A DNA stretch of 64,000 nt from Candidatus Komeilibacteria bacterium (GCA_048538275.1 JBLYPW010000003.1:15248-79247); one strand, 5' to 3'; counted from the first letter of the stretch, positions 29,100 to 54,774 are shown. Notes: generated from the letters alone by a model not told the origin. Translations and numbers: made by a program.

Positions 29100-29128
29100 T
29101 TGTGAACATATGTAATTCCTGTTATAAT
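29100..29128 (+). promoter_or_regulatory. Sigma70-like promoter TTGTGA-N17-TATAAT upstream of the accessory-island operon
   Basis: Sequence TTGTGAacatatgtaattcctgtTATAAT, about 24 nt upstream of the ATG at 29152. Confidence 0.4.
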
Positions 29129-29151
29129 TTAATAGAAAAATGATCTGATTT

Positions 29152-29928
29152 ATGCCAGAATATTTAGATAAAGACGTACAACAACAAAAAGAGGGCCAAC
29201 AACCCTCTAATCCTTATTTATATTTAGGTGTTTTAGTGGGCGCAATGGTAATTTTTGGTATGACTTTTTGGCAAGTACAGCATAATATAAAAGCTCCCTT
29301 TGCCGACGATAATTCTGATAATAATGATAATCAAGTAATAGCTAATGCCGATAATCTTGATATTGAAAAACTCAAAAAACAAGATACGGACGGTGATGGT
29401 TTATCAGATTATTTGGAGCAATATGTTTATGGCACCTCCTCTTATATCGCGGACACGGATTCGGATGACATAAGTGATTCTGACGAAGTATTACAAGGTA
29501 CGGATCCATTGTGTGGTCAGGATGGTGGCTGCGCTCAGCCTATTAATACGCCCAGCGCAATGACTGGTGATGATTCTTTGGATGCTTTAATCAATAATGA
29601 TCAAGTTAATAATGATACCGGCGCATCCTCAGCAGATGGCATGACGCGTCAGCAATTAACGGATATTTTAGTACAGATGGGTTTCAATGCCACGGACCTG
29701 GCCAATGTAAGTGATCAAGATTTAGCTTTATTATACGACGAGGCTTTGCGTATGGCGCAAAATAGTGGTGATACTATAAACCCAGTCAATGATACTGGCA
29801 ATATCACGGCGGAGGAAATTCGCCAAGCCTTATTAGACAGTGGTGTTAGCGCCAGTCAGCTGGAAGGTATCACCGATGAAGAATTGATACAACTTTATCA
29901 GCAAGCTATTAGTAGCCAAGCACAATAA
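29152..29928 (+). CDS. Membrane-anchored Asp-rich protein with dockerin/thrombospondin-type-3-like Ca-binding motifs and a duplicated C-terminal helical motif
   Basis: Has a TM helix (LYLGVLVGAMVIFGMTFW), the motifs DTDGDGLSDYLE and DTDSDDISDSDE, and two approximately 35-aa repeats (...LTDILVQMGFNATDLANVSDQDLALLYDEA / ...IRQALLDSGVSASQLEGITDEELIQLYQQA). Its stop overlaps the start of the giant gene (TAATG). Confidence 0.5.
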   Translation: MPEYLDKDVQQQKEGQQPSNPYLYLGVLVGAMVIFGMTFWQVQHNIKAPFADDNSDNNDNQVIANADNLDIEKLKKQDTDGDGLSDYLEQYVYGTSSYIADTDSDDISDSDEVLQGTDPLCGQDGGCAQPINTPSAMTGDDSLDALINNDQVNNDTGASSADGMTRQQLTDILVQMGFNATDLANVSDQDLALLYDEALRMAQNSGDTINPVNDTGNITAEEIRQALLDSGVSASQLEGITDEELIQLYQQAISSQAQ

Positions 29929-32900
29929 TGTTTAATCCCCAACAAAAATTAATCTCTAGTATTGTATTGGTGGTGATGTTGTTTTTTGTTATCAGTGGTG
30001 CTGTGGTGACTCCACAGCCGGCTCATGCTTCTACGTTTGGTGTCATTGCCGTCAATACCGCCAAGTGGGTGTGGGAGAAAGTGGGTGATATTTATACTGC
30101 CTTAAAGTCGCGTTTAAGCACGACATTAATTACTAATTCGGTTGATTTATTTGCGCAGCGCATGGCGGTAAATATGGCTAAAACACTAGCTACTGGGGGA
30201 AGAGGTCAGCAGCCGATGTTTAGTACCAAGGTTTTTAATGATGTTGTGAAGGATGCAGCTGGGGCAGCGGCTGGTGATTTTATTGGGCAATTGAGTAGTG
30301 CGTGGGGTGATTTAGGCATTAATTTATGTGAGCCCAGTCTGGATGTAAAGGCTACCATCACTATGTCATTGCTTAAATCGCAGAAAGCGCCAGAACCAAA
30401 ATGTGATCTTGCTAGTGTAGTACGTAACTGGGATAGTTTTATTAAAACAAATACTGACCCCAAGGCCTTGGCTGAAGGCTTACAGGTGCAGTTTCAAACG
30501 GGAAAAAGTGATTTTTCTGCGTCTTTTGCTTTGAATAATAAATTATTGAACCAGATAAAAAGTGATGAACTGGTAGCATTGTTTGATACAGAAAGCCAAG
30601 GATATAAAAGCAAAACCAATACTACGAATACCGAAATTCAAACTCCTAGCTCTTCGGTAGAAGACACAGCGGAAGCACCAGCTAGAGAGGCTAGCAATGC
30701 GCAGCTGGCTAAAACCTTTGCTGCTATTACCAGTCAGGATACTATCTTTGGCAGGGCTTTGAGTACATTTGGTAATACTTTTCTTTCCCAGTTATTAAAT
30801 CGTTGGATCTTAGATGGCATGAATAAACTGAATAATTGGAAAAATAGTCAGGTAGCCAGTACTGGCGGGGCGAATAGCATAAATTTTGATAATAATTCTG
30901 GGCCTGGTCCTGAAGCGGCTAGCGCCTACTATAGTAATTTAATATCAGTGAGTTTCAATAGCGTAGATGACTATACACCAACGTCTGATTTTACCATTTG
31001 TCCAACTACGGGTATTGTCCCATATAATAATTGTGTGATGAATCAAAAGTTTTATTCTGCGTTCAATCGTACTCAGCCCATGACAGTGCAACAAGCGATT
31101 GATGCTAAATTATTGAGCCCTGATTTGCCTTTGATTAGCCAGGATGATCCACGTAACAATGATGTTAATTATTGTTATAATAGTGCTTTGTGTTATTCTA
31201 ATTTGCAAAAAATGCGTTTGGCTCGTTTGATTCCCTTGGGCTGGGAAATTGCTGCTAGCATAAGCTCAGCTAACACTCCTGCGACCATGGGTGAGGTTTT
31301 GGCGGCATTTGATAACCCAGATAGCCCTTATCATAATTTGATTGATCCCAATTGGGTATTAAAAGAGCCACGAGCACAATGTTTGGCTATGGGTCCTGGA
31401 CCTCAATTACAGTCTATTGGCAGTGACCAACGTACGGAGATGTGTGTGGACAGTCAGACTTGTCTGCGTAGTGATGACAATGGTGAATGTTTGCCGGGAG
31501 CGTGGGGCTATTGTACACGCGAAGAAAATATTTGGCGCTTTGGTGGTCAGCAGTGTTCTCCGGCTTATGCTTCTTGTCGTAATTATAAGGCTGATGGGCA
31601 GACATACAGCTATATCAAAGATACTTTAGATTTTTGTACGGCTGATGAAGTGGGTTGTCAGTGGTATAGCGTAGCTCAAGAATTGGGTGCTGCTGCCACT
31701 GAGACTTTTAGCCCTCCCCAAGTAGATTTTAATAATGTTCCTTCCACTATTACATATGACCAGGCGTCGGCTGATCAGTTTTGTTTGCAGCGGGGCTATG
31801 ATTTTGCTCAAAGTTATGACCAAGAGGGAGCCGGCACAGGAGATATCATTTGGAATAGTGAGCAGAGTAGCTGGGAGTTGAATACCGCTGCTGCGCCACA
31901 TGCTATCATCTCAGATATAAGCTGTGTGAGGCAAGGGTATGATTGGCTGGCTGATGAAAACATTTATCTGAATGCTCAGGCTGGTGATTGCGACGCTACT
32001 GATGCCGGTTGTACTAAGTTGTTACCGATCCAATGGGGAGTTAATTTATTATATAATGGTGGTTTTGAAAAAGTAGGTTCTAATAATAACAGGCCAGACG
32101 GCTGGTATTGGTCTGACACTGATGTAAGTTTAACTGACAACAGATCAGAAGTTTTCGCTGGTGAACGAGCTGTCAGCACTATGAATAATTATAGTTATGT
32201 CTATACTGATGTGCCATTGATTGGTGGCCTACCTTATTATATTGCCATAGCCGCCAAAACCAATGATAGTAAAGCGATGGGTGTGACCATTAAGTTTTAT
32301 GATAGCAACGACGCTCTTATCATGCCTACTAATGATGATGATATTGATATAGGCGATAGTAGTGTGGTGAATTGGCGTGAGGGCTGTGGTGGTGGCGTCT
32401 GTCATTTTAGTGGCGACCTGACTATAACCAATCAATATGTTAAATATGACTTGCCTTTTATAGCACCGGAGGGAGCTGTCAAAATTATTATTGGTATGGG
32501 CACTGGTGGTGCCGGTTCTGGTGATGTTTACCTTGATAATGTCCAGCTCAGCCTTGGTAATTCAGCTATGAGTTATCGTGATTATAATAGTAATTCTTTT
32601 AATTATCTTAAAATAGCCCCGGATTATTTAGATTGTAGTAATAGTAGCAGCGTAGAATGTGCCAATTATGCCCCTAGCTGTACGGCTGAGGAAATGGGAT
32701 GCCAATTATATACTCCGGTAAATGGTGATCCGGCCGTGGCGGGCGTGGTAAATAGCGGTGATTATTGTAGTCAAAGTTGTGCCGGATTGGATCAATATTG
32801 GCAAAAACAAACCACTATTGAAAATATGTTTGGTGATGATCCGGCCGGTGCTTTTGTGAATTTTATACCCAGCAGCGCCCAACAATGTCAGGTGCAAGAT

Positions 32901-35900
32901 GTGGGCTGTGAAGAATTTACTAATTTAGATAGAAATGAAGCGTTAGAATATTATAGTGATCTGCGTATGTGTGTATCAGAAGCGGATGTAGATATAGCCA
33001 CTTATTATACTTGGGAGGGATCGGATACGGCCGGTTATCAGCTGAAGACTTGGCGTTTGTTGAAAAGTAATGATAATGATGGCCCTTGTACAAATATAGC
33101 TTTTGATGGAGAAAACAATATTTGCGTTGATAGTGAAGTGAGTGCGCCTGCTTGTGATACTAGTGCCGGTGATGATTGTCGTACTTTTATTGATGCCGAG
33201 CAAAATAGTTTTGTAGTGAACCAAGCGCAAGTTATCAAAGCTAGCGCCGATTGCACGCTTGTGCGGCGCACTGCAAACCCTCAGGATATTGCCGTCATTT
33301 TGCCTAGCGAATCAAATAGTTGTACAGTTGCTGCTGTTGGTTGCCATGCTTATCAAGGCAATAGCGCTGGTAATACGCGCATTATAAGTTATGATGATTT
33401 TGAAAGTGGTCAAGCCGGTTGGAGTGGCGGTGGTTTGACGACAGAGTCTTTAACAGCCGGTGGACATTCGCTTTGGAGCAATGGTGATATAAACAAATCT
33501 TTATTCATTAATGATAATCATAGTTTCACCCTTTCCTTTTATGCCAAGAGGCAAGAGATCGGTAATTCTAATTTGTCAGCTCAATTATTGGTCGGTGATC
33601 ATGTTTATGATTTGGGGAGCGTTGCTATTAATGATGAGTGGCAACAGTATGCCTTGGGTCCGATAGGTGTTCATGAAGCTAGTAGTGAGATTTTGGAAGC
33701 GACATTGCAATTTTCCATTGGTAGTACGACAGGCTATTTTTTGGATAATATAAATCTTAAGCAAATTAATTCTGATTTGTATTTATTAGCTGGTTCTTGG
33801 CAAACACCAGATATATGTTTGAACGGTAATAATGGTCCGGTGCTGGGCTGTCAGGAGTATAAGGACGTAGCTAATAATAGCCATCATCTCTATCAGTTTT
33901 CATCTTTATGCGGTGAGGATAAAGTAGGTTGCAGCGCCTTTATAAATACGCAGAATAGCACTAGTCCTTTAGCGCAGAGCTGGCCGATGGGAGCGGATGA
34001 TGAGATCATTACTGTGTCGGCTGATAAACTAGTTTATCTGGTGGATCGTCCTGAGTTTAGGTGTGATGCTGGGGTCCAAGGTTGTTCGGCTTTGGGTGAA
34101 CCGGTGATGCAAACAGATCCGGCCACTGGTAATCAGAGCGTGGCCAGCTGGTCTGATGTCTATAAATTGAATAATCCGGATAATTATGAAGGTTCTTTGT
34201 GTCGGGAAGATGCCTTATATTGTCGGGCCTATCAAAGTGATGAAGGCGTTGTCTATATCACTGATCCGGGCGACAAGACTTGCGCTTATCTGGAAAATTA
34301 TACTTACGATGGCACAACTTATGAGCCGGGCTGGTATTTGAGCAGTAGTTTATCCGGCGAGCCACAGGAGTGTGGCCCAGGCATTGAGCTACCAAAACGC
34401 CGTGACGACAACTACCAAGGTTATGCTGGTTTATGCATTCCAGAGGCCAATGGTTGTACCGAGTTTATTGATCCGGTAGGTACTACCGGCGATGATTTGA
34501 TCCGCAATGGTAATTTTGAGTTTAATAATAATACGCTTACTACCCCAGATTTTTGGAGCTATAATAAGAATTTGGCTGATAATATTCGTTGGGATGCGAG
34601 TGAGGGCTGGGATGATAGTTATGCTGCTAGTGCTCTTTATGCTGATAATACGTCTTATGTGCAGAATATTTCAGGATTATCTGGCGGTGTAGATTATGTG
34701 GTGCGCATAAAAGCCAAAGGAATTGCCAATGGTGATAGACTACGTCTTGGTTTGGAGTGTGAAGGAGCAAATATTAGCTCCCGAGACAATAGTTTTATTA
34801 TCAGTGGTAATGTGGGTGATAGGCAATTTATCATTAATAATACTAATGGCGATTTTGTAGATGTCTCGGCCAAGTTTAGAATCAACAATAATATAGATAA
34901 TAATAGTTGTGATATAAGTTTAGGATTTGCGGGCAATGATTTAGATGGTCGTTATTTTGATAATGTTAGTGTCAGGCGCTTGCAGTCTTATTATTATATA
35001 AACGATGACAAGCTTAATGGCGTTAGTTGTAGTGGGCAGGTTTCACAGGATAAGGGGTGTGTTTTGGTAGAAGATACGTCACAATTGTCATTGGATGATG
35101 GGCAGATAATCACTCAGTATGATAGTAGTAGCACGTATCATAATAGCACACAAAATAGTGGTAATTTGGTATTGCCAGTCAGTTGCCAAGATGGATCAGT
35201 CGGTTGTGATGCTAATCGTATTATTAGTGTTAGTCGTGATCGTCAATGCTCAGAGTGGCTAGCTTGTCAGTCTTCTACTGTTATCACTCAGCCTGATGGT
35301 AGCCAACAACAATTGTGCTATGATCTCGGTCGTTGTACTCAATTGTCGCCGGATGGTACGCAATGTTTACAGTGGGTGGATAGGCCGGTGACAGAGAAGC
35401 TGGATGTGGCTAAGTACCAGTCTCGCGAAGTAGGCTGGTCGGGGCAGGATTATAGTGGTTATTCTTTGTTGGATATACCGCCTTTGGAGACTTTGGTGTC
35501 TAGTGCCAATAATGATACTTTGACTTTGCATTTGCCGACTGGCACTGAAGGTATGTCATTTAATTCCATATCGCCCTCTTGTCGTCTTTATCCCAGCACC
35601 AATGCGCCGTTTTCCACAGAGAATATGACTGTCCGACGAGATGATAATGGTAATATTATAAGCAAACCGCAGACTTTTGCGCAGGCTAATCTTTGCGATG
35701 AAGGCGGCGCTGGTTGTGAGTGTAGCTATCGGGAGATAAGTTATAGTCAGGGAGAAACTAGGTATTATGGTTTGGACTATCAATATCCTGATGCTATTAC
35801 TCACACGGATGGCTCTCCAGACAGTACTATAACCAAGATAAATGAATATCGTGGCGCTTGGGGATTCTGTTTACAAAGAGATATGTCCCGTACTATTCAA

Positions 35901-38567
35901 GGTGTCGGCGGTCAAGAACATCCTTGTATTACTTGGTTGCCATTGAATATATTAAGCGGAGAATATGATCCTAATGCTGTTGATGTGCAAGCTTCATTAA
36001 ATTTGCCTATCGGTAATATGTATTATTGCGCTGCAGGTAGTAGTGACGAAGTAACTCTGCCATCTGGTGATTATAGCAGTCTTGTACAATTTGGAGATAT
36101 GTCCCAATTAGATAGCGGTGATCTGCCACAGGGTGGGTGGACGGCGTATCCGAGTAATGTTTCTAATCAGCAAGGGTCGTCTTGCATTAGTTATCCTGCT
36201 GCCAATCAGGGAACTAGTTGGATGGAACTTTATGCCCCATCAGGTTCGTGTTATATAGAGAACAATAATTTGGGTGATGTTACGCTAGGTCCTGATAATC
36301 AATATCATTATCGTTTGACTTTTGAGTTGGGTGATATATATGGCACTATTAGTGATCAAATACCTTATTTCGCGGTTGAATTATCGTGTAATCAGACAGA
36401 CTATCTTGCTACTATTCCTGACGGTGGAAATGATGATGTTTTATTGGATATTAATTCTCCGGTTCCTTGTGATTCTGTTGTTGTGGGCGTTGTTGGTAGT
36501 GGCGAGGAAAGATTAATGCAGATCAGAAATTTAGTAGTATCTACACCTGATTATATTACGCAACAACAAACCATGTGTACCGATATAGTGCAAGTTGAAT
36601 ACCCCAAATTCAATCAATTAATTAATCCGCCTGTTACTTTGGCAGCTTGGCCCAATCAGTATAAAGATTGGTATGGACGAATGTCCGTCTCTGCTGATAC
36701 TGTTTTGAATAATTATAATACCCCAATTAATGTAGAGTCGGTGGGGCAGTTTTCTGGCGTGGATGTAATTAATAGTGCTGGGACACCTTATAGTAATATT
36801 TCTGGTAGTGAGGATATACCCTATTCTCAATGTGTGGGCGTTGCAGCTGCTGCGGGCGCCACTTGTGCCGGCGGTGAGAGAGAGGGTCAGTCATGCAGTA
36901 GCGACATGCAGTGCCCCGTGAATCACAATGATACTTGTGAAGGTTATATAGAGTCTCAAATTGATCAGAGCAGTTGTGATTATGAGGCTGGCCAATATAC
37001 TCATTGCGATACTATTCCTGAAGTTATGGGCACCTGTGTTAATTCTGGTGCTAGTTGTCGTGTTGATAATGATTGCGCTCCTTATAATACTTACGCTATT
37101 TGCCAATCAAGTAACGCTACATACGATTGTCACACAGACGAGGGTAAAGATAATTGTTATGCAGCCGGTGGTCGTTGCTTGGGTCTTGATACAGCTACTC
37201 CACTGACCGTATATAATCAGATTAATGATGTTGATAATACTGGATTTGCCAATGTTTTTAGTGTTATTAAGGAATTATTTGCAAAAATAGTAGCTCGTTT
37301 CAGTTGGTCAAATGGTAGTTATCAATCAAATAGTAGTGAAGTAGGCGGATCAATCAGTGATGCCGAAGTGGTCACAATCAGGCCAGTTATCACCCTTGCT
37401 GGCGAGGAGACAGCCGGATCTAGCAAGGGCATCACTATCAATAGCAAGACAAGCGGTGATATTTCTTTTGCTAAGGATAGTGCCAATGTTACCATGAAGT
37501 TTTATGCTTATAATGTAAGCGGTGATCAGATACCGTTGAATAATTTAGTAGTGGACTGGGGTGATGGTAGTATCTTTGGTGGTTCAGGTAGCGGGAATTC
37601 TATTGTACCAGGTGACGTGTCATTGAAAAATCATCAATCCATGTGTATTAATAATTGTTCTACCGGCATACTGGACGATGCTTTTGGTGCCCCGGCGTTT
37701 TCTGCTACTGCTAATAATTTTAATTTTTATGCTTATCCCAATACCCAGCACGATTGGCATTCAGGCTATGCTTATATGACGCAAAAAACAGGATATGATG
37801 CATCTAATAATTCAACTCGTAATTGGATGACATTGCGTTTGCCAGCGAATAAGATGAGTGCTATCCCTCGTTTTGCCGCCGGAGATGTGTTGACTTTGGA
37901 GTATGATTATCAAATTAGTCCTGGCTTCTTAAAGAATGGAATAGCAAATCATATTTGTTATGGTATCGGTTATTGTAGTCAAGGCAAGCAGTATCCCTTT
38001 TTGAGCTTTGCCACGCTTGACAGTATGGATGATTTTGATAGCCATGTTAATACTTGGGGACATTATAGCAGCACAGCCGTAGTGACCCCTGATATGGTTA
38101 GCGCTTGCGTGGATAATAATAATCCCTCCGGTTATTGTTTGCGAGAACTGGCGGTAGCGAATTTGCGTGATCAGGCATTGGCCTCCCCACAAACTATTAG
38201 AATTAAAAATGTTCATTTGTTGTGGGGTTGTCGTAATAATAATAGCTGTACGGCCAGCAAATTTGGCAATCTGGGTCAGTGCCAAGCCATAGATATCGGC
38301 GATGACTTGCGTTTTTGCGTGGATGACTATCAAAATAGCATTGGTTATTTTAGCTTTAATCATACTTATACTTGTGCTGATCCGAATCCACCTGGTGATA
38401 TTGATGGTAGTAGTAATTCTTGTATCTATAAGCCTAAAGTTTATATAGAAGATAATTGGGGCTATTGCACGGAGGGGAGTAGTAATGTTTGTAAAGATAA
38501 TTATTCTAATTCGATACAATCTACTGGTTGGTTTGAATATCCAGGCAGTATAAGATTAACACCATAG
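29928..38567 (+). CDS. Giant (2879 aa) secreted Cys-rich surface protein with three CBM4/9-like beta-sandwich modules
   Basis: Has a signal peptide (…VTPQPAHA/S), more than 100 Cys often in paired spacing, and three modules. The modules begin LLYNGGFE...GWYWSD...VYLDNVQLS, ISYDDFESGQAGWSGG...YFLDNINLKQ and LIRNGNFEFNNN...DFWSY...RYFDNVSVRR. It is one uninterrupted 8.6-kb ORF in an AT-rich genome. Confidence 0.7.
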   Translation: MFNPQQKLISSIVLVVMLFFVISGAVVTPQPAHASTFGVIAVNTAKWVWEKVGDIYTALKSRLSTTLITNSVDLFAQRMAVNMAKTLATGGRGQQPMFSTKVFNDVVKDAAGAAAGDFIGQLSSAWGDLGINLCEPSLDVKATITMSLLKSQKAPEPKCDLASVVRNWDSFIKTNTDPKALAEGLQVQFQTGKSDFSASFALNNKLLNQIKSDELVALFDTESQGYKSKTNTTNTEIQTPSSSVEDTAEAPAREASNAQLAKTFAAITSQDTIFGRALSTFGNTFLSQLLNRWILDGMNKLNNWKNSQVASTGGANSINFDNNSGPGPEAASAYYSNLISVSFNSVDDYTPTSDFTICPTTGIVPYNNCVMNQKFYSAFNRTQPMTVQQAIDAKLLSPDLPLISQDDPRNNDVNYCYNSALCYSNLQKMRLARLIPLGWEIAASISSANTPATMGEVLAAFDNPDSPYHNLIDPNWVLKEPRAQCLAMGPGPQLQSIGSDQRTEMCVDSQTCLRSDDNGECLPGAWGYCTREENIWRFGGQQCSPAYASCRNYKADGQTYSYIKDTLDFCTADEVGCQWYSVAQELGAAATETFSPPQVDFNNVPSTITYDQASADQFCLQRGYDFAQSYDQEGAGTGDIIWNSEQSSWELNTAAAPHAIISDISCVRQGYDWLADENIYLNAQAGDCDATDAGCTKLLPIQWGVNLLYNGGFEKVGSNNNRPDGWYWSDTDVSLTDNRSEVFAGERAVSTMNNYSYVYTDVPLIGGLPYYIAIAAKTNDSKAMGVTIKFYDSNDALIMPTNDDDIDIGDSSVVNWREGCGGGVCHFSGDLTITNQYVKYDLPFIAPEGAVKIIIGMGTGGAGSGDVYLDNVQLSLGNSAMSYRDYNSNSFNYLKIAPDYLDCSNSSSVECANYAPSCTAEEMGCQLYTPVNGDPAVAGVVNSGDYCSQSCAGLDQYWQKQTTIENMFGDDPAGAFVNFIPSSAQQCQVQDVGCEEFTNLDRNEALEYYSDLRMCVSEADVDIATYYTWEGSDTAGYQLKTWRLLKSNDNDGPCTNIAFDGENNICVDSEVSAPACDTSAGDDCRTFIDAEQNSFVVNQAQVIKASADCTLVRRTANPQDIAVILPSESNSCTVAAVGCHAYQGNSAGNTRIISYDDFESGQAGWSGGGLTTESLTAGGHSLWSNGDINKSLFINDNHSFTLSFYAKRQEIGNSNLSAQLLVGDHVYDLGSVAINDEWQQYALGPIGVHEASSEILEATLQFSIGSTTGYFLDNINLKQINSDLYLLAGSWQTPDICLNGNNGPVLGCQEYKDVANNSHHLYQFSSLCGEDKVGCSAFINTQNSTSPLAQSWPMGADDEIITVSADKLVYLVDRPEFRCDAGVQGCSALGEPVMQTDPATGNQSVASWSDVYKLNNPDNYEGSLCREDALYCRAYQSDEGVVYITDPGDKTCAYLENYTYDGTTYEPGWYLSSSLSGEPQECGPGIELPKRRDDNYQGYAGLCIPEANGCTEFIDPVGTTGDDLIRNGNFEFNNNTLTTPDFWSYNKNLADNIRWDASEGWDDSYAASALYADNTSYVQNISGLSGGVDYVVRIKAKGIANGDRLRLGLECEGANISSRDNSFIISGNVGDRQFIINNTNGDFVDVSAKFRINNNIDNNSCDISLGFAGNDLDGRYFDNVSVRRLQSYYYINDDKLNGVSCSGQVSQDKGCVLVEDTSQLSLDDGQIITQYDSSSTYHNSTQNSGNLVLPVSCQDGSVGCDANRIISVSRDRQCSEWLACQSSTVITQPDGSQQQLCYDLGRCTQLSPDGTQCLQWVDRPVTEKLDVAKYQSREVGWSGQDYSGYSLLDIPPLETLVSSANNDTLTLHLPTGTEGMSFNSISPSCRLYPSTNAPFSTENMTVRRDDNGNIISKPQTFAQANLCDEGGAGCECSYREISYSQGETRYYGLDYQYPDAITHTDGSPDSTITKINEYRGAWGFCLQRDMSRTIQGVGGQEHPCITWLPLNILSGEYDPNAVDVQASLNLPIGNMYYCAAGSSDEVTLPSGDYSSLVQFGDMSQLDSGDLPQGGWTAYPSNVSNQQGSSCISYPAANQGTSWMELYAPSGSCYIENNNLGDVTLGPDNQYHYRLTFELGDIYGTISDQIPYFAVELSCNQTDYLATIPDGGNDDVLLDINSPVPCDSVVVGVVGSGEERLMQIRNLVVSTPDYITQQQTMCTDIVQVEYPKFNQLINPPVTLAAWPNQYKDWYGRMSVSADTVLNNYNTPINVESVGQFSGVDVINSAGTPYSNISGSEDIPYSQCVGVAAAAGATCAGGEREGQSCSSDMQCPVNHNDTCEGYIESQIDQSSCDYEAGQYTHCDTIPEVMGTCVNSGASCRVDNDCAPYNTYAICQSSNATYDCHTDEGKDNCYAAGGRCLGLDTATPLTVYNQINDVDNTGFANVFSVIKELFAKIVARFSWSNGSYQSNSSEVGGSISDAEVVTIRPVITLAGEETAGSSKGITINSKTSGDISFAKDSANVTMKFYAYNVSGDQIPLNNLVVDWGDGSIFGGSGSGNSIVPGDVSLKNHQSMCINNCSTGILDDAFGAPAFSATANNFNFYAYPNTQHDWHSGYAYMTQKTGYDASNNSTRNWMTLRLPANKMSAIPRFAAGDVLTLEYDYQISPGFLKNGIANHICYGIGYCSQGKQYPFLSFATLDSMDDFDSHVNTWGHYSSTAVVTPDMVSACVDNNNPSGYCLRELAVANLRDQALASPQTIRIKNVHLLWGCRNNNSCTASKFGNLGQCQAIDIGDDLRFCVDDYQNSIGYFSFNHTYTCADPNPPGDIDGSSNSCIYKPKVYIEDNWGYCTEGSSNVCKDNYSNSIQSTGWFEYPGSIRLTP

Positions 38568-38589
38568 GAGTTTGTTATAGTAAAAATAA

Positions 38590-38618
38590 AACCGGTCTAG
38601 TTTGCTACTAGACCGGTT
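38590..38618. terminator. Hairpin AACCGGTCTAG-N7-CTAGACCGGTT between the convergent giant gene and T9SS-CTD paralog 1
   Basis: 11-bp perfect stem. Confidence 0.45.
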
Positions 38619-38638
38619 ATGCCTTTCATTTCAACAAA

Positions 38639-39889: not shown

Positions 39890-39989
39890 GATGAGCCCTC
39901 CTTTTTCTTTAATTTATTGTTTTGTTAGTTTTCAAGGTTCTTTATCTCCTGAAAAAGGGGATAAATTATCACTTTTATGATAACATATT

Positions 39990-40018
39990 ATCATACATTA
40001 TTTTAGTAGATTTGTCAA
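39990..40018 (-). promoter_or_regulatory. Promoter of paralog 1 (minus strand): TTGACA-N17-TATGAT
   Basis: The minus-strand read is TTGACAaatctactaaaataatgTATGAT. The identical sequence recurs upstream of paralog 2 at 41509-41537. Confidence 0.45.
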
Positions 40019-40192
40019 GCTAAGTAGGGCTGGCTCATTTTTTTTAATATTTCTTCCCTTATTTGATTTTTCTAGCTATAGTACCAGATTGATTAGGGTC
40101 AATCCAGCCTAGCTAGTTCAATCGTGCTTTGTACAGGTGGCAAATAAAAAAGCCGATCTTTGTTAAGACCGGCTTGGTTTATTTTTTGATTA

Positions 40193-41443
40193 TTATTTTA
40201 TTATTGTTAGTTTTCTACTCAGTTGTTTATTCTGAGCAGTTATAACAACAATGTATGTGCCACTGGCAATATTGCCCGGTGACCAGTTAATCTCGTGCTG
40301 CCCAGCTGTTTGCCAGTTATTTATCAGCTGAGCCATTTGTTCACCTTTCATATTATATACAGACAGTTGAACTTGCCCGGACTGTGGCAGTTCATAGCTT
40401 ATGACCGTACTGGCATTGAAAGGGTTGGGATAATTGGGCAAAAGCGCATAATCCTGTGCGCTTATTGGCTCGGTTTCAAGGGCGGTGATATTGTATTCCG
40501 CACTTAAAATTATTCCGTTATAGCTGATAGTCCACAAGACTTCATTAATTTTTAGCTGGGCGCTGAAGAAATCCATACCGTCCAGTGGAGGATCAATGAT
40601 ATGTGACTGCCAAGTATTGCCATGATTTTCTGAGGCGTGTAATAGTTGGCCGCCCGTTATTATTGTCTGTTCATTCACCACAGTAAGCACCGTAGTCGGA
40701 TCAAAATTATCCGGAGTAGTAGGATAATTTATCACATTCCAGCTCAATCCCGCGTCATTACTGATCAAGATGGCATCCAGAGCGGTTGCATATATGGTAT
40801 TGCCACTGGTTTGCATTGTGGATATGCCCCAACCACCTATATTATACATAACCAATGACCAGGTGACGCCATAATTATCAGAGCGATAGATGCTATTGCT
40901 AAAGGGGTAGCTACCCATCAGCAAAACACCGTCACCAAGTTCCAGTAGGCCGTTTAAGCCGCTGCTAATGTCAACGCTCATTACTTGCCAACTGGACCCG
41001 CTATTCATTGATTTGGCCATAAAGCCGTTTGCCCCTACTACCAACATAGTTGAATTTGATAATTCAATTATGTCATAAATATGGGTTGCTTGGTTGAAAA
41101 CGGTTTTTGTCCATCCCGACTCATCACCTCGCAACACATATCCTTCGCCACGACTATGACCACCGACAATATAGAAATTATTGTCAGAGCTTAGCAGGGC
41201 ATCATACACTTCTTCGTGATCCAACTCTTTTATGAGCTGAAGACCAAATTCTGTATCATCCGGTGCTTTTTTGAGCCATATCCCGTTATTGCCGAATACA
41301 TTGATTGTGTCATTATTCGGTACGATGGCACGCAGCTGGCCAACCACTGGTGGATGATCCCAACTCATTATATTGGTAATACCAGCTATTGCGGTATTAT
41401 ACACCAATGATATTGCCAAGGTTATAATAAAACTTGATTTCAC
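40193..41443 (-). CDS. Secreted BNR/Asp-box repeat protein with T9SS-type C-terminal sorting domain (paralog 2)
   Basis: Same length (416 aa) and architecture as paralog 1. Asp-box motifs are SMNSGSSW, RSDNYGVTW, SNDAGLSW and SENHGNTW. The C-terminus NYPNPFNASTVISYELPQSGQVQLSVYNMKGE...GTYIVVITAQNK follows the same CTD pattern. Confidence 0.6.
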   Translation of the reverse strand: MKSSFIITLAISLVYNTAIAGITNIMSWDHPPVVGQLRAIVPNNDTINVFGNNGIWLKKAPDDTEFGLQLIKELDHEEVYDALLSSDNNFYIVGGHSRGEGYVLRGDESGWTKTVFNQATHIYDIIELSNSTMLVVGANGFMAKSMNSGSSWQVMSVDISSGLNGLLELGDGVLLMGSYPFSNSIYRSDNYGVTWSLVMYNIGGWGISTMQTSGNTIYATALDAILISNDAGLSWNVINYPTTPDNFDPTTVLTVVNEQTIITGGQLLHASENHGNTWQSHIIDPPLDGMDFFSAQLKINEVLWTISYNGIILSAEYNITALETEPISAQDYALLPNYPNPFNASTVISYELPQSGQVQLSVYNMKGEQMAQLINNWQTAGQHEINWSPGNIASGTYIVVITAQNKQLSRKLTIIK

Positions 41444-41508
41444 GAGAAACCTCCCTACATTTTTGGTTAAAGTACAATTTTTATAGCTAAGCTATAAATA
41501 ATTATATT

Positions 41509-41537
41509 ATCATACATTATTTTAGTAGATTTGTCAA
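41509..41537 (-). promoter_or_regulatory. Promoter of paralog 2 (minus strand): TTGACA-N17-TATGAT, abutting the repeat element
   Basis: Identical 29-nt promoter block to the one at 39990-40018. The -35 hexamer ends exactly at the left inverted repeat of the element. Confidence 0.45.
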
Positions 41538-41675
41538 CCCCGTTAGAGGTTTAGATAATTTTTTAACCTATTTTTACTATAGTTTTGCTTAGGTTTTGTG
41601 TCTAGTGTTTTTTAGTTACACTATATTGTATATGGTGTAAGAAAGTGTATTTATAGACCCAAACCTCTAACGGGG
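41538..41675. repeat. MITE-like intergenic element, copy A (138 bp) with 15-bp terminal inverted repeats CCCCGTTAGAGGTTT ... AAACCTCTAACGGGG
   Basis: It is about 85% identical over its length to copy B at 49732-49866. It has perfect terminal inverted repeats, is AT-rich internally and has no ORF. Confidence 0.6.
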
Positions 41676-41739
41676 CGGGTCTTCAAGAGATGATAATTTT
41701 CTGGTATAATAATAATGTAATTTATAACCGGTCAACACC

Positions 41740-44700
41740 GTGTTAAAACCTTTTCGGCCAGCGAAAAAAAAGAATGGCTATCGGCAACTGCGGGCAGTAC
41801 AATTACCCCTGGTTGTCTTGTTTTTGTTGGTGGCGGGAGCCGCTCTGTTTTGGTTGGTACCGCAGCCGGTCTTGGCTGTTGCTAGTATTAGTGATGCCAT
41901 TGCTAGCGCTCTAGCTACTATTTTGAATTGGGTGCTGAATTTTATTGGCAGCTTGATTAGTTCTATCCTCATACCCGTATTATCGCAATTGGCTGTTTTT
42001 AATGACTTTACCGGCTCCGGAGCCGTGGTGCAGGGATGGAAGTTGGTGCGTGATATCTGCAACATGTTTTTCATTGTCATGATGTTGGTGATATCAGTGG
42101 GTACAGTATTGAATATATCTTCTTATAGCTATAAGAATTTTCTTAAAAAGATTATTTTTATGGCTATTTTAATAAATTTTTCTAAAACCATTGCTGGTGC
42201 TTTGATTGATGTCGCGCAAATCGTCATGCTGACTTTTGTCAGCGCTTTCAAGGATAGCTTGATCGTGGGTTTTGCGCAGGCTTTTGGCTTGAATAAATTG
42301 ACCAGTTTAGGGACTACTGTGAATGACGCTGGCTATGTTGAAAAAGACAATTGGTCTATTTTGATGGGCGTTGTTTTTGCTATAGTGATAGCGGCCATAT
42401 TAGCGATTGTTTTGATTGGTATGATTATTATGTTAGCTGCCCGTATTGTGATGTTATGGGTTTTGGTAGTCTTATCACCCTTTGCGTATTTGGCCAATAT
42501 TTTGCCCGGCCGCTTGTCTTCATTGGGTGGACAGTGGTGGAAACAATTTACTGATCAGTTGATAGTTGGCCCGGTAATTGCCTTCTTTTTATGGTTAGCT
42601 TTATCTGTTGCCGGATCACCGGGTGGTTTTATTGGTGAAAACGTTGATACGAGCAATCAGCCTACCAGTTTGATTGACAGTAGCTTGGCTAATGCTAGTT
42701 TTTTGATGAATTATGTGATGGGTATTTTGATGTTGATAGTGGGTATGAAAATGGCTAAGAGCATGGGTGGAGCGGCCGGCGCTGCTTTTGGTAAGGGCAC
42801 TGGTTGGGCGCAGAAATATGGTTGGCAAGGGGTCAAGGGATCTTTCAAAGGCGTTGGCAAGTCTGTTTCTTGGGCTAGAGATGCTAGTAAGGCTTTTGGT
42901 CGTAAAGGGGGTAGTAAAGAATATTTGGATGAATTGGATCAAAAACGTGACGCCTATGCTGCTCGGGGTGGCGTTATGGGAACTTTAAATTCTTTGCGCT
43001 TGGCACGTAAAATTGATAAATATAAAGGTAGGGAAAAGAGTAGAAAGGAAGCAGCGGGGATTGTTTTGAAAAAATTTGGTTTGGATGGCGAGGCCGCTCA
43101 AAAGACTTTAGTGACTGCTAGTCAAATAAGGGAAGATAAGAAAAAAAATAACATTAAGAGAGTAGTTGTTGATGAGGTAAGTAAGGAGTTTGCCGGTGAT
43201 GATAAATTAGCGCAAGTGAAGACAGATATTAAGACGAAAAAAGCTAAGACATTGTTATCTGGTGATAAAGAAAGCGCGATGATGAATTATTATGCTGATA
43301 AAGAAATCAACGTCACCGAAGAAGATAAACAGGCTTATCGTGAAAAAAATCCCTCTGCTATATCGCCAGATTATGATTTGACTGATGATCAGCTGCGTGA
43401 AGTCAGGGAACAGAAAACCAAAACGGCCTGGCAAAAGTTGAGCAAAAAGGAACAAGGTGAATGGCAGGACAGGTTTTTGCAGGATATAAATAATAAACCA
43501 TTTCTCAATGAACAACCAGTTACTGAGGAAGATATAGAGCAGTTCAAACAAGAAGAAATAAATCAACGTACGGAAGCAAAGTTGAAAGATTTTACTTATA
43601 GGCCACGGGGCATGAGTATGACCGCTCCGGCTAATATTATGCGCTATGCGGTTGACTGGGCTAAGGGCAAACAGGAAGACCGTTTGAATATGGAAAAATT
43701 AGGTCAGGTTTTGCCCGCTAATCCTGACTCTTTTAGAGCTTATAATATTTTGGATCCATTGAACGCAGTTAAACCAGCGGCAGCAGAAGCGATCATGAAA
43801 CAAATGGACGCGAATGCAATATATAAGCAGTATAAGCATTTGGATGACAAAGTAAATGATGCCGAAACCAAAGAAAAAAGACAAAAGGCCAATAAAGCAA
43901 GAACAGCATGGCTAATGGGAGCCCAATTTCTTAAGGGAAAATTATCTCAAGTGGATGAGTTCCTTGGTCGTTTACCAGATGGTGTGAGCGTGGTGCAGCC
44001 TGATGAAAAGGTTGAGGCGTTAAGTAGTGTTAAAATAGAAAAATCCAAACGTGATTTCCGTGTGGACAATACCGATATTGAAAAAATGGAAAATACCAAG
44101 CGTGCCGCCATGGAACACATGATAAGCCTGGGACCCGAAGAGACGGTAAATAGTATTAAAGGTGAGTCTGGCTGGCAGATTGACACGACCAATTCTGACT
44201 TGGATGCCGATCAGGTGGTGCTGAAAAATGGTGATCAAAGTCAAACTATGACTACGGATCAATTTGTACGTAGCAACGGCAAGTTAATGTCGGAGCGATT
44301 TTATGATAGCGCTAGCGCAAAAATGGGTAGTGATAATTTTGTGGAGAAAGATAAGTTTGATGACTATACTCGGATACGTCAGAGTAGCCAATATGGCGTT
44401 ACTTTGCGGGCCGGCAATGACAAAGCAGCGGTTGATTTTGATCGTTTGCAAGAAGTAGTTGGTGACAAATTGGATATAAACGATATAGCTTTGCAAGGTG
44501 AAAATGTTAATGGTGATGAAGCTGTGATTATTGCCAATGGTATGCGACAAATGATAGAAGAGCAAAAGCAGGCTTTGGCTGACAGCGAAGATGAAGAACA
44601 GACCAGGCAGATATTGTTTGATTATTTTGGTAAAGATACGTCGGCCTCTGGTGAAAAATTGGCAAAAATAAAAAATGAAACCTTGATAAACGCGGATGCC

Positions 44701-46875
44701 AATATAGCAAATTTGGACATGGCCGATGCCACAAATGTTCAAACAATGCGTGAAAATGGTTTGCGTTTATTTAACAAACATCGGGCGGGCGGAGAGATAA
44801 GGCAGTTGTACGAACATGAAACTAAACATGGTTGGTTGGATAAGGTTGATCCGGATAAATCTATGCGCCAGCAAGCTTGGGCCGATATGACAGAGACAGA
44901 TCGCCAGGCTGCCAAAGATTATATTATACGCACGAGAGGCGAGGGTGATTGGACTGATGAAGAAATCGCTGGTGAGTATTTGGTGGATGCTTTGCAAAAA
45001 CGGCAAAGCAAGGATTCGGCTGAACGACCACCAGAGTTACCACAAGCTATTAAGCGACGTTTCACGGAAGCAGAAGATTATCAGATAAGTGAAGAATCTG
45101 GCTCAGCAGTAGATCATGAGTCTATGATCAAGACTTTAGCCGGTAAATATGTTGCTCGTAAAAATATCAAACAGCAAGATTATGAACAATCAGCCAGAGA
45201 ACAAAATACCTCTTTCTTGAATGCGGCTGCCAGAGCCGAGCAAGCGAACCAGCAAGCCAAAGTTGAGTTTAAGACAGCGACTAGTAAAGCACGACAAGAC
45301 AGCATTGGCAGCGCGCCCCAATCTATTGGCGGTAGCCAAACATTTGTTAGTACTGCACAGCGAGCTGATTTGGAAAAACGTTTTGGCCGCACTCTTTCTA
45401 GTGAAGAAGTTAAAAAATTCTCCGATATGAAGCGTAAAGAATTGAACCAAACAATAGAGGGGGAAAAGGCCAAGCAATTACGACAACAAGAGTCTGAGCG
45501 CGCGGCCGAGCTTAGTAAACAATATTATAGCGAACAAGAACGTAAACAGGATTATCTACGCAACAAAGCCAAGGAAGTTAATAAATATAGAGACGAGCAA
45601 AAGTATTATAATAATAATGCGGCAGCTCGTCAGGTGATAGCTGATAATGTAAAAAGTGGTGACTTGCCTATTGGTCAGTTAATGAAAATGAGTTCTACGG
45701 AAAGACAAGAACAACTTACCAATCTTTTACAACAAGCTGTCAAAGAGGGCGGGCTTGATGTGCAAGCTGAGTCATTACCCGCTATTGTTAACAATATAGA
45801 GGCGCAGCTGGATACAGAGGATATTAAAGTAGGTAACACATATGATCAAGGAGTAGCTTATCAAGCTTTACAGAGTCAGGCTAAGACGGATAAGAAGCTA
45901 GCAAATGATGCTGGTAAAGAAGCTGATAAATCTGTTAAATTTTGGGACAAAGAGATTACCAAGATTGATAGATCTGCTGGTCAGATAAAGACACGGGCAG
46001 AAAAAAGCGCGGCAGCTGCCAAGGCAACGACGACTGGCGGAAGTGATGCAATATCATCAATGCGCCAGGAATCAGCTAAACAACAGTCTGGCAAAAGACC
46101 AGTAGCGCCCAGCACAAGCAGTCGTTCTGATAATATGCCCGCTACTGGATCAGATGGAGTTGAACGAATGGAGCAGCGGTCAGAGCAGCGGTCAGAGCAG
46201 CGGTCAGAGCAGCGGTCAGAGCAGCGGTCAGAGCATGAGCGTAAGACCGACACGAGGACGCAATCCAATCAGACCGGGTCGGCTGAAAAGAAGGCTACGG
46301 ATCGTGTGATTCGTAGTGAAAAGAATACTATCACTTCGTCAGAAGCTGGCGCAAAGCCTGCCAGTCCGACAGCTGCACCGGCTGCCAAACCGCTTGGCAA
46401 AGCGACAGAGGCACCTTCTCAGCCAGCAGGCAATATAACTAGTACGGTTGAGCAGAGTGATAAAGTAGTTGGATTGTTAAATGATATTAGAGGTTTATTG
46501 AACGGACGTACTGGTCCTATAGCAGCCAGCAATACGTCTGTTATGGGACAGGCTTTGATGTCGCCGCAGCAATTTAAGTTATTAAAAAAACAATTTCAGT
46601 CTTTGGCCGCCAGTATAGCTGCCAATAAATCAAGTCAGAAAGTACTGGGTCAGGAAACAATGGATAAGTTAAATCACGTGAATAGCGCCTTACAGTCCAC
46701 GCAAGTAGATGATGATCATGATGTTGATATTGATTTGACAATGCAGGCAATGGATATAAATCCGTCCGACCTGGCCGCGATTTTAAAGAAAGTGGAGGAG
46801 CAACAAAAGAAAGATGCGGAAGATGATCAGGATGATGATATCCAGCCGCCCGCTAATTTACCAACAGCCACTTAG
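41740..46875 (+). CDS. Giant (1711 aa) polytopic membrane protein with about 1350-aa charged, low-complexity C-terminal region; VirB6/TrbL-like architecture is speculative
   Basis: The N-terminal roughly 340 aa have 6-8 TM helices. Downstream are a Gly-rich linker (GGAAGAAFGKGTGW) and a long E/K/Q/D-rich region with coiled-coil character that contains a (EQRS)5 repeat. Confidence 0.6.
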   Translation: MLKPFRPAKKKNGYRQLRAVQLPLVVLFLLVAGAALFWLVPQPVLAVASISDAIASALATILNWVLNFIGSLISSILIPVLSQLAVFNDFTGSGAVVQGWKLVRDICNMFFIVMMLVISVGTVLNISSYSYKNFLKKIIFMAILINFSKTIAGALIDVAQIVMLTFVSAFKDSLIVGFAQAFGLNKLTSLGTTVNDAGYVEKDNWSILMGVVFAIVIAAILAIVLIGMIIMLAARIVMLWVLVVLSPFAYLANILPGRLSSLGGQWWKQFTDQLIVGPVIAFFLWLALSVAGSPGGFIGENVDTSNQPTSLIDSSLANASFLMNYVMGILMLIVGMKMAKSMGGAAGAAFGKGTGWAQKYGWQGVKGSFKGVGKSVSWARDASKAFGRKGGSKEYLDELDQKRDAYAARGGVMGTLNSLRLARKIDKYKGREKSRKEAAGIVLKKFGLDGEAAQKTLVTASQIREDKKKNNIKRVVVDEVSKEFAGDDKLAQVKTDIKTKKAKTLLSGDKESAMMNYYADKEINVTEEDKQAYREKNPSAISPDYDLTDDQLREVREQKTKTAWQKLSKKEQGEWQDRFLQDINNKPFLNEQPVTEEDIEQFKQEEINQRTEAKLKDFTYRPRGMSMTAPANIMRYAVDWAKGKQEDRLNMEKLGQVLPANPDSFRAYNILDPLNAVKPAAAEAIMKQMDANAIYKQYKHLDDKVNDAETKEKRQKANKARTAWLMGAQFLKGKLSQVDEFLGRLPDGVSVVQPDEKVEALSSVKIEKSKRDFRVDNTDIEKMENTKRAAMEHMISLGPEETVNSIKGESGWQIDTTNSDLDADQVVLKNGDQSQTMTTDQFVRSNGKLMSERFYDSASAKMGSDNFVEKDKFDDYTRIRQSSQYGVTLRAGNDKAAVDFDRLQEVVGDKLDINDIALQGENVNGDEAVIIANGMRQMIEEQKQALADSEDEEQTRQILFDYFGKDTSASGEKLAKIKNETLINADANIANLDMADATNVQTMRENGLRLFNKHRAGGEIRQLYEHETKHGWLDKVDPDKSMRQQAWADMTETDRQAAKDYIIRTRGEGDWTDEEIAGEYLVDALQKRQSKDSAERPPELPQAIKRRFTEAEDYQISEESGSAVDHESMIKTLAGKYVARKNIKQQDYEQSAREQNTSFLNAAARAEQANQQAKVEFKTATSKARQDSIGSAPQSIGGSQTFVSTAQRADLEKRFGRTLSSEEVKKFSDMKRKELNQTIEGEKAKQLRQQESERAAELSKQYYSEQERKQDYLRNKAKEVNKYRDEQKYYNNNAAARQVIADNVKSGDLPIGQLMKMSSTERQEQLTNLLQQAVKEGGLDVQAESLPAIVNNIEAQLDTEDIKVGNTYDQGVAYQALQSQAKTDKKLANDAGKEADKSVKFWDKEITKIDRSAGQIKTRAEKSAAAAKATTTGGSDAISSMRQESAKQQSGKRPVAPSTSSRSDNMPATGSDGVERMEQRSEQRSEQRSEQRSEQRSEHERKTDTRTQSNQTGSAEKKATDRVIRSEKNTITSSEAGAKPASPTAAPAAKPLGKATEAPSQPAGNITSTVEQSDKVVGLLNDIRGLLNGRTGPIAASNTSVMGQALMSPQQFKLLKKQFQSLAASIAANKSSQKVLGQETMDKLNHVNSALQSTQVDDDHDVDIDLTMQAMDINPSDLAAILKKVEEQQKKDAEDDQDDDIQPPANLPTAT
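46171..46230 (+). repeat. Five perfect tandem copies of GAGCAGCGGTCA (12 nt) inside the 41740..46875 CDS
   Basis: They encode EQRSEQRSEQRSEQRSEQRS, and a degenerate sixth unit (GAGCATGAGCGT) follows. Confidence 0.8.
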
Positions 46876-46876
46876 T

Positions 46877-47686
46877 ATGGTTAAAGAAAAAAATGTTAAA
46901 CAATATCTAGAAGATGATGAAACAGCTGCCAAGCTGGATATTTTGAGTTATAAATATAATATTCCTGCGCGAGCCGTGGCGAGCGCGATATTGTCGGGTG
47001 AGTTACCGCATGATTTGGTCACCGGCTTTTTAGAAGAGGAGTTAAAGTTGGAAGCAGAACAAGCCAAAGAATTATGGATCAGTATTCAAGAAGTGATTAT
47101 TGCTCCTTGGCAAGATTGGCAGCCGGTCAAGACTACTATTGCTGCGCCAGAAGATAATTCTGGATCTATACATTTTCACAAGGATAGCTGGCGTGAATTT
47201 TTGAAACCGGATAATTTATTGGCCGCGCAAGCCGAGTTACAACGGGTCAGTAGCGGTCAGATAGCAAAAATAGTTGATTATTTATGGCAATCACTAGGCC
47301 TGGAGAAAAAGCAAGAAGTAATTACTATTTTAGTATATCTTGCAAAAAAAGGTCAGTTATTAAAATTGTGGCAAGACCATAGGCTAGCCGGTATATTACG
47401 TAAGTACTTGATAGTAGATAAACAATTTGGTGAGGCTCAGGTAGAAAAATGGCTCAATTCGCCTTGGACTGCCGGTATGTTGAGCCTAGCTTTGCGCCAG
47501 ATTTTACAGAGTAAACTTGGTTTTGATAATAGCGAGGCAGCACAAATTAGCTTGTCTATTATTGATCAGCTGGGGCCGGCCGATAAAGCTCGCTTTATTT
47601 TGATAGCTTATGTTGATACTAAAGATAATAAACTTTATTGGTCTGAGGTAGAGCCGGATGATAGCGGTTTATTGCTAGCGGTGTGA
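46877..47686 (+). CDS. Hypothetical protein (269 aa); start adjusted to the ATG overlapping the upstream stop (TAGTATG)
   Basis: The track ORF 46814..47686 overlaps the giant gene by 62 nt, whereas the internal Met at 46877 follows its stop codon directly. No motif was recognised. Confidence 0.45.
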   Translation: MVKEKNVKQYLEDDETAAKLDILSYKYNIPARAVASAILSGELPHDLVTGFLEEELKLEAEQAKELWISIQEVIIAPWQDWQPVKTTIAAPEDNSGSIHFHKDSWREFLKPDNLLAAQAELQRVSSGQIAKIVDYLWQSLGLEKKQEVITILVYLAKKGQLLKLWQDHRLAGILRKYLIVDKQFGEAQVEKWLNSPWTAGMLSLALRQILQSKLGFDNSEAAQISLSIIDQLGPADKARFILIAYVDTKDNKLYWSEVEPDDSGLLLAV

Positions 47687-47708
47687 GCTGTATAAAAATA
47701 TTAAAAAA

Positions 47709-53260: not shown

Positions 53261-53276
53261 TGTTTTGTTTTTTTAG

Positions 53277-54743: not shown

Positions 54744-54774
54744 AGTTTGCTCAATTAGTTAGAAAATTTATAAG

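Follow-up and report, generated by a model that had tools for sequence, protein, structure and literature searches.

The 64,000-nt stretch analysed here (the window) comes from a metagenome-assembled genome of Candidatus Komeilibacteria, a lineage of the Patescibacteria or candidate phyla radiation (CPR); two window proteins match proteins of such a genome at 100% identity. Pfam and NCBIfam scans place rsmA upstream and efp downstream of a block of ~18 kb, which encodes a TSP3-like membrane protein, a giant Cys-rich secreted protein, two minus-strand BNR beta-propeller proteins (BNR_A and BNR_B) that carry a type IX secretion system (T9SS) sorting domain, a 1711-aa VirB6-like protein and a 269-aa protein (Table 1). 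We consider it probable that ABY1-class Patescibacteria inherited this block vertically as a native locus, and that it encodes the membrane channel and the cell-surface components of their type IV secretion system (T4SS), which is chromosomal and derived from conjugation. All the genes listed for the block were recovered at their coordinates by open reading frame (ORF) calling.

The gene order of the block is conserved far beyond this genome, and its core, rsmA-TSP3-giant-VirB6, was found in dozens of CPR genomes. In Parcubacteria Athens1014_10, for example, leuS, an MFS gene and rsmA are followed by genes for a TSP3-like protein (238 aa), a giant protein (2096 aa), VirB6 (697 aa), a 449-aa protein, PrgI, a TraC-like protein and a VirB4-like protein, with a T4SS pilin and radA further on. 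Of the 58 loci whose upstream flank spans >=9 kb, 48 have a giant homologue upstream of VirB6 and on its strand. Downstream of VirB6, the genes for PrgI, a TraC-like protein and VirB4 are present in 47-50 of the 64 loci whose downstream flank is long enough. In six loci, no more than 4-21 nt separate the giant gene from VirB6, and 23-26 CPR loci have a TSP3-like homologue immediately upstream of the giant gene. The whole block is kept in three other Komeilibacteria (L085, L086 and L090), including the minus-strand BNR/Por_Secre_tail gene or genes, a long-tailed VirB6 (1697, 1807 and 1243 aa, respectively) and a ~270-aa gene abutting efp-rpsR-ssb-rpsF. In these relatives, LeuRS is only 74-78% identical and EF-P is 77% identical (L085, L086).

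The composition of the block gives the same picture. GC content is flat, 0.40-0.44 within the block vs 0.37-0.43 outside, and in synonymous codon usage the two BNR genes alone deviate, those for the TSP3-like, giant, VirB6-like and 269-aa proteins being unremarkable. The first-pass annotation had described the block as differing in character from its housekeeping flanks, and as a variable accessory island between core genes. Horizontal acquisition of the whole 18 kb would fit the size of the genes, which lack housekeeping analogues and mostly have no Pfam matches, the presence inside the block of an element like a miniature inverted-repeat transposable element (MITE), and a 4-mer profile that deviates at 34-38 kb (z ~3). 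However, the 4-mer deviation coincides with the Cys/Gly/Asn/Ser-rich C-terminal half of the giant gene, itself native, and scans of the window ORFs and tRNAs found no integrase, transposase or tRNA at the block borders. Since the synteny is conserved and the composition is uniform, the accessory-island reading is refuted, and we regard an acquired, variable island as very improbable. The difference in character likewise shrinks to the two BNR genes.

We assign the 1711-aa protein to the VirB6/TrbL-type subunits of T4SSs. Homologues of its first 420 residues occur throughout the CPR, some with precomputed matches to PF04610 or PF19590, and relatives of the protein are encoded in at least 387 species-representative genomes. 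Pfam TrbL (PF04610) is matched by four of 17 close family members (best 1.1e-5); the 1711-aa protein itself has no match at E <= 0.1, and a PDB sequence search with the VirB6 profile returned chance-level matches only. The protein has ~7-8 transmembrane segments in residues 1-340 (hydrophobic segments at aa 22-334). The AlphaFold2 (AF2) model of the N-terminal domain is an all-helical bundle, and its predicted fold is similar to that of solved VirB6. The remaining ~1350 residues form a tail of roughly balanced charge, for which Pfam gave nothing at E <= 10. This architecture of a polytopic domain and a long charged tail bears out the first-pass annotation, which missed the link to the Patescibacteria T4SS.

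Because a K/R-rich stretch follows the last transmembrane segment, the tail is probably cytoplasmic by the positive-inside rule. It contains a perfect 12-nt tandem repeat of ~5 copies at 46159-46247, which encodes (EQRS)n and is likely a slippage-prone tract of variable length. Outside the close Komeilibacteria, L009, L029 and L031 have VirB6 ORFs of 1793, 1513 and 1731 aa that directly abut the giant gene; the expansion of the tail is therefore recurrent. The TraG protein of the F plasmid is another extended VirB6-type protein and resembles the 1711-aa protein in this respect. VirB6 paralogues of the Rickettsiales are extended as well, e.g. Anaplasma VirB6-4 with 4322 aa (PMC7648143); like the protein described here, they combine an N-terminal VirB6-like polytopic domain with a very large hydrophilic C-terminal extension. 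The present tail differs in that no sequence similarity was found in it, and in that it is K/E/Q/A-rich with low-complexity repeats and probably cytoplasmic. The 269-aa protein encoded next to it had been regarded as an orphan, but it has homologues in four other loci and is a conserved partner in Komeilibacteria and in L004.

A survey of Patescibacteria T4SSs (Quinonero-Coronel et al. 2025, PMC12102498) reported VirB6 homologues and found KsgA (RsmA) and radA near virB4 in ABY1 genomes. According to this survey, the T4SS is essential in the sole species tested, no PrgB-like adhesin was detected in CPR, and neither an adhesin nor a substrate was identified. The locus described here resembles this chromosomal, MPF-FATA-like system in its VirB6-type polytopic protein, in its KsgA (RsmA) and radA neighbours, in the continuation of the relatives' loci into genes for PrgI/VirB3, a TraC-like protein, VirB4 and a VirB2-like pilin, and in that no relaxase was seen. 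It differs in that the survey reports no adhesin and is silent on three features that appear to be undescribed: the pairing of the TSP3-like and giant proteins, a VirB6 with a very long tail, and proteins with a T9SS tag.

The TSP3-giant pair may supply the adhesin. The stop and start codons of the two genes overlap as TAATG at 29926-29930, in agreement with the translational overlap noted earlier, and this tight coupling is kept in L085, L086, L089 and L090 (a gap of <=6 nt or an overlap). The 258-aa protein has one transmembrane segment (residues 22-40) and is rich in Asp (35/258, 13.6%). Its residues 78-89 match Pfam TSP3_bac with 26.8 bits vs a cutoff of 25, and the Ca-binding motif Dx(D/N)xDGxxDxxE is present. 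The protein had been annotated as a dockerin/TSP3-like Ca-motif membrane protein; the TSP3 and membrane parts of this description hold, and the dockerin part is not supported, as Pfam Dockerin_1 has no match in the protein. The earlier proposal that the Asp-rich protein is a partner of the giant is reasonable.

The giant protein contains 100 Cys (3.5%) and repeats a C-x5-6-GC-x2-[FY] motif seven times. It has one hydrophobic segment, at the N-terminus, and three jelly-roll modules like those of the carbohydrate-binding module (CBM) families 4, 9 and 22, at ~aa 700-880, 1139-1290 and 1580-1745. The other proteins of its family, 2000-3700 aa in length, come from Komeilibacteria, Uhrbacteria and further CPR, and the family includes CPR names only. 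The first-pass annotation had claimed a Cys-rich protein with three CBM4/9-like modules. The Cys content agrees with this claim, whereas the giant's own modules remain below threshold in Pfam (best E = 0.15). The modules are instead supported by orthologues that match CBM_4_9 (PF02018) at the positions of modules 1 and 2 (3.3e-20 for P0093, 1.5e-10 for P0091 and 6.1e-8 for P0089), by the fold of module 2 and by the resemblance of module 3 to module 1 (E = 5e-5). The AF2 model of residues 919-1320 has a predicted local distance difference test score (pLDDT) of ~90. In a Foldseek comparison the model of module 2, the only module for which the CBM jelly-roll fold was seen, matches CBM22, CBM16 and porphyran-binding CBM structures with TM-scores of 0.61-0.69 (4xuo, 0.68, normalised to the target; 8xmz, 0.69; 2zey, 0.63). 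Like CBM4/9/16/22 modules, module 2 has the jelly-roll fold, and the orthologues reach significant Pfam scores. Unlike them, the modules lie inside a disulphide-rich giant without a recognisable catalytic domain, and the sequence of the giant itself scores below threshold.

Modules of the CBM4/9/16/22 type typically accompany glycoside hydrolases, and 1900 aa of the giant have no assigned fold; Pfam gave nothing at E <= 10 for its N- and C-terminal regions. The giant could therefore be an effector that degrades the host cell wall or forms pores, targeted to its substrate by the CBM modules, and Foldseek also lists the receptor-binding domains of binary toxins and Cry toxins. However, the toxin matches reach TM-scores of only 0.15-0.23 and appear to rest on the common jelly-roll, and no catalytic family was detected by Pfam, NCBIfam or PDB sequence search, the last returning chance-level matches only. 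We consider an effector unlikely. It is more plausible that the giant is the missing adhesin of the Patescibacteria T4SS, putatively anchored and glycan-binding. In this role it would be comparable to the PrgB/PrgA/PrgC adhesins of Gram-positive conjugation (pCF10), which are also large secreted surface proteins encoded beside MPF-FATA-type T4SS genes and have a proposed role in cell-cell contact. The two differ in that no sequence relationship exists between them, and in that the giant is Cys-rich, bears CBM-like modules and has no LPXTG motif noted. A role of the block as a surface attachment or interaction module, as suggested in the first-pass annotation, is reasonable.

Between the giant and VirB6 genes lie BNR_A and BNR_B. 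That these are two tandem BNR paralogues with T9SS C-terminal domains on the opposite strand was confirmed. Both match the BNR/PSII_BNR/Sortilin propeller families (BNR_A to PSII_BNR at 4e-9), and the Por_Secre_tail model TIGR04183 scores 37.1 bits in BNR_A and 46.7 bits in BNR_B vs a cutoff of 23, the sorting domains covering residues 333-413 and 338-414 of 416, respectively. The hydrophobic N-termini, MKKMMSLMILVILSNGNLLG and MKSSFIITLAISLVYNTAIAG, were judged by inspection to be Sec signal peptides. A PDB sequence search with BNR_B returned chance-level matches only. BNR_A and BNR_B are 32% identical to each other and 24-30% identical to their Komeilibacteria counterparts, which makes them the fastest-evolving genes of the block. 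Among the Komeilibacteria copies the tag is better conserved than the propeller, with a mean identity of 41% vs 24%, and it keeps invariant NYPNPFN, AG and GxY motifs and a terminal K. Neither an outer membrane nor a T9SS is known from CPR bacteria, and the tag is therefore unexpected. We found no report in the literature that links T9SS sorting domains to CPR.

The two proteins resemble the type-A cargo of the T9SS in Bacteroidota and the wider Fibrobacteres-Chlorobi-Bacteroidetes (FCB) group (TIGR04183 / PF18962). They share with it a signal peptide, a passenger and an 80-90-aa C-terminal beta-sandwich with YPNPF, GxY and a terminal K, their scores exceed the curated cutoffs, and their tags are up to 53% identical to FCB-type tags. 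They differ from it in their CPR host and in their position inside a T4SS-associated locus, and no T9SS machinery gene (SprA, PorV, PorU, GldKLMN) was found among the window ORFs scanned. Their codon usage also sets them apart, with z = -5.5 for BNR_A and -4.5 for BNR_B relative to the other 17 minus-strand genes, the next gene reaching -2.8. The GC content at third codon positions (GC3) is 0.475 and 0.427, respectively, vs ~0.36 typically. The nearest non-CPR relatives of these genes lie on contigs with POTRA and RND genes or Por_Secre_tail arrays.

In four Komeilibacteria genomes (the window, L085, L086 and L090), this slot contains homologous tagged genes, always on one and the same strand. 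In eight other CPR loci, a hidden Markov model (HMM) scan found secreted proteins of similar size with a diverged "YPNPA" tag between the giant and VirB6, scoring 49-58 bits with Pfam Por_Secre_tail. Tagged secreted proteins of ~415 aa are thus found in the giant-VirB6 slot of 12 CPR loci, two further loci have tagged proteins nearby, and a tagged gene lies inside the giant-VirB6 gap in 9 of the 44 loci with a visible gap. A negative scan for NYPNPF elsewhere had suggested that the tagged genes are an insertion specific to Komeilibacteria, which the HMM scan ruled out. The borders of the BNR segment bear an imperfect inverted repeat of 20 nt (38611-38630 / 41714-41733), which we take to be a chance match, as its 10-nt core belongs to a terminator hairpin. 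In Parcubacteria Athens1014_10, the slot holds a 23S_rRNA_IVP-family gene (L002 9564-9926) and no tagged protein, which is consistent with a hotspot of variable content.

The most economical description is a variable slot in a conserved T4SS-associated locus, which recurrently houses tagged surface proteins. Under the most economical account of their origin, the tagged genes of Komeilibacteria were most likely imported from FCB bacteria, possibly more than once. The Komeilibacteria tags are 39% identical to FCB-type tags (maximum 53%), 39% among themselves and 22% to the other CPR tags. In addition, GC3 marks the tagged genes as outliers in each of the four Komeilibacteria genomes, while those of most other CPR loci look native. 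The canonical FCB-type tag, its identity of up to 53% with tags on non-CPR contigs and a GC3 above that of the neighbours might also arise from an assembly or binning artefact that joined FCB DNA chimerically into a CPR contig. We consider this very improbable, as CPR genes lie on both sides within one contig and homologues sit in the same slot and strand in four independently assembled Komeilibacteria genomes. Moreover, the slot also holds tagged genes in the eight other CPR loci, the 4-mer profile of the BNR region is normal, and its promoter box is of the plain TTGACA/TATGAT type.

Alternatively, the C-terminal domain may no longer be a T9SS signal but a generic Ig-like beta-sandwich reused on the CPR's own surface, e.g. 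for attachment to the S-layer, the wall or the giant, in which case the ~415-aa protein would be an old native accessory subunit. This is a serious possibility that we nevertheless do not favour. It would fit the Falkowbacteria-type loci, where secreted proteins of similar size with the diverged "YPNPA" tag occupy the same slot with native GC3. A profile-profile comparison joins the Komeilibacteria and other CPR tagged families over 240 columns with a probability of 96.8%, and the apparent lack of an outer membrane and a T9SS in CPR bacteria points in the same direction. A second, unrelated passenger carries the same tag in L090, a Pel9A-like beta-helix protein beside rpsF (18911-20115, minus strand, GC3 0.47), so that the tag is not restricted to the BNR passenger in Komeilibacteria. 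On the other hand, the Komeilibacteria tags keep the full canonical set of type-A motifs and are as close to FCB tags as to each other, and the genes are compositional outliers in every Komeilibacteria genome, which fits repeated import better than old residence. For the Komeilibacteria genes we therefore prefer import from FCB bacteria.

Import raises a further, speculative idea, to which we attach a low probability. ABY1-class Patescibacteria, most clearly Komeilibacteria, might repeatedly take up T9SS cargo genes of FCB bacteria and retain the tag for its action on the host. Once exported by Sec or delivered through the neighbouring T4SS, the tag would be recognised by T9SS surface components of the host (the PorV shuttle and the PorU sortase), and the propeller would be displayed on, or covalently tethered to, the host outer surface. 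If so, the tag would be a hijack of host machinery for attachment and a genomic pointer to the hosts of these lineages. A literature search gave nothing useful on the hosts of Komeilibacteria.

Several observations weigh against a native T4SS-associated locus as outlined at the start. No VirB4, PrgI or TraC-like gene lies within the 64-kb window; for this genome, therefore, the link with the T4SS rests on homology and on the synteny of its relatives. The neighbourhood of VirB4/VirB3 homologues is seen in the loci of relatives, and neither in the window nor in the close Komeilibacteria loci, so that the locus departs from the known Patescibacteria T4SS in having a split cluster in Komeilibacteria. 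In addition, AF2 gave a pLDDT <30 and no fold for module 1 of the giant. Moreover, a simple old gene transfer does not account for the persistently high GC3 of the tagged genes if they have been resident since the separation of the four Komeilibacteria. As to the split, in a more distant member of the Komeilibacteria (L089) an 850-aa VirB6 comes immediately after the giant gene, with no tagged gene between them. The T4SS cluster of L089 (15082-21177) is interrupted by an inverted efp-rpsR-ssb-rpsF block, and PrgI, TraC-like and VirB4 genes resume ~3 kb beyond. This arrangement may be an intermediate stage of the cluster split seen in the window.

From the architecture, homologies and folds described above, we infer how the locus may work. 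A promoter after rsmA would drive the two translationally coupled genes. The product of the first, a single-pass, Ca-binding TSP3-like membrane protein, would anchor or chaperone the giant at the membrane. The second product, Sec-exported and presumably disulphide-bonded, would bind host glycans with its three CBM4/9/22-like jelly-rolls as the adhesin of the T4SS. The 1711-aa protein would be the VirB6-type subunit of the channel or platform, and its tail may serve as a scaffold together with the coupled 269-aa protein. The variable slot between the giant and VirB6 here holds two genes oriented against their neighbours, and each would have a terminator of its own and be driven from its own copy of one and the same promoter box. 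They encode predicted Sec-exported BNR beta-propellers with a canonical T9SS type-A sorting domain at the C-terminus. Capture from FCB-group outer-membrane bacteria is the most likely origin of these genes, and they may be kept as fast-evolving surface or host-interaction factors whose C-terminal domain is under selection.

Little is known of the way in which CPR bacteria attach to their hosts and exploit them, and the locus offers concrete, widely conserved candidates. One is the giant CBM protein, putatively anchored by the TSP3-like protein, which we describe as co-transcribed with VirB6 in many lineages. The other is the slot that recurrently holds proteins with a T9SS sorting tag. Since the tag is more constrained than its passenger and the Komeilibacteria genes look imported from FCB bacteria, these proteins could point either to the identity of the host or to a new use of the domain.

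Table 1. Features of the rsmA-efp block and of its repeats (positions counted from the first nucleotide of the window).
Position	Strand	Feature	Remark
29100-29128	+	Putative sigma-70-like promoter (TTGTGA, 17 nt, TATAAT, extended TG), between rsmA and the TSP3-like gene	10/12 matches; function predicted from the match
29152-29928	+	Asp-rich protein of 258 aa with a single membrane pass and TSP3-type Ca-binding motifs	Conserved partner of the giant
29928-38567	+	2879-aa secreted Cys-rich giant protein	
38590-38618	.	GC-rich hairpin with T tracts on both sides, 12-bp stem (minus strand)	Probable terminator common to the convergent giant and BNR_A genes
38639-39889	-	BNR_A, 416 aa	Signal peptide, BNR/Ycf48-like beta-propeller, T9SS type-A C-terminal sorting domain
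39985-40018	-	34-nt exact box upstream of BNR_A (TTGACA, 17 nt, TATGAT)	Best sigma-70-type promoter match of the region
40150-40175	-	Terminator-like hairpin 3' of BNR_B	
40193-41443	-	BNR_B, 416 aa	Paralogue of BNR_A with identical architecture
41504-41537	-	Second copy of the 34-nt promoter box, upstream of BNR_B	
41538-41675	+	MITE-like element, copy 1	Bounded by perfect terminal inverted repeats of 15 nt, CCCCGTTAGAGGTTT / AAACCTCTAACGGGG
41740-46875	+	1711-aa VirB6/TrbL-like polytopic membrane protein (aa 1 to ~340) with ~1350-aa charged tail	
46877-47686	+	269-aa soluble protein	Start 1 nt past the VirB6 stop
49732-49866 (approx.)	+	MITE-like element, copy 2	Outside the flagged region, in the rpsF-htpX interval

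The two promoter boxes of the BNR genes are identical over 34 nt, including the whole 17-nt spacer, and the DNA around them has diverged. Such an exact box, despite only 32% identity between the proteins, suggests a common operator or a recent gene conversion. This repeat, a duplicated promoter, is distinct from the MITE: a separate element with terminal inverted repeats adjoins it, and the second box ends exactly where the first copy of the element begins. The MITE-like repeat reported in the first-pass annotation does exist. It is ~140-150 bp long with perfect inverted ends, and its two copies in the 64 kb are ~90% identical. The 14-mer has 4 matches vs 0.25 expected. At its left edge, each copy has a promoter-like TTGTCA, 17 nt, GATAAT, and the site of copy 1 faces the VirB6 gene. 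The ends show no clear target-site duplication, no transposase lies in the window, and the element is absent from the 88 loci examined, including those of the Komeilibacteria L085 and L086.

An Rfam scan of the window found tRNA only, and the sole tRNA lies at 3831-3905. Many public records titled 'uncultured Gammaproteobacteria bacterium' (TPA assemblies; L007, L011, L012, L016-L019 and others) bear this CPR-specific locus; the taxonomic names in these titles look like erroneous defaults. A type IV pilus cluster at 51740-63879, 4 kb downstream of the block, encodes PilM, a PilB-like protein, a response regulator, a PilT-like protein, PilC, a pilin and a prepilin peptidase. Ahead of this cluster are two ~500-aa genes without Pfam matches and with high second-position GC, and a second PilB-like ATPase is encoded at 12373-14064.

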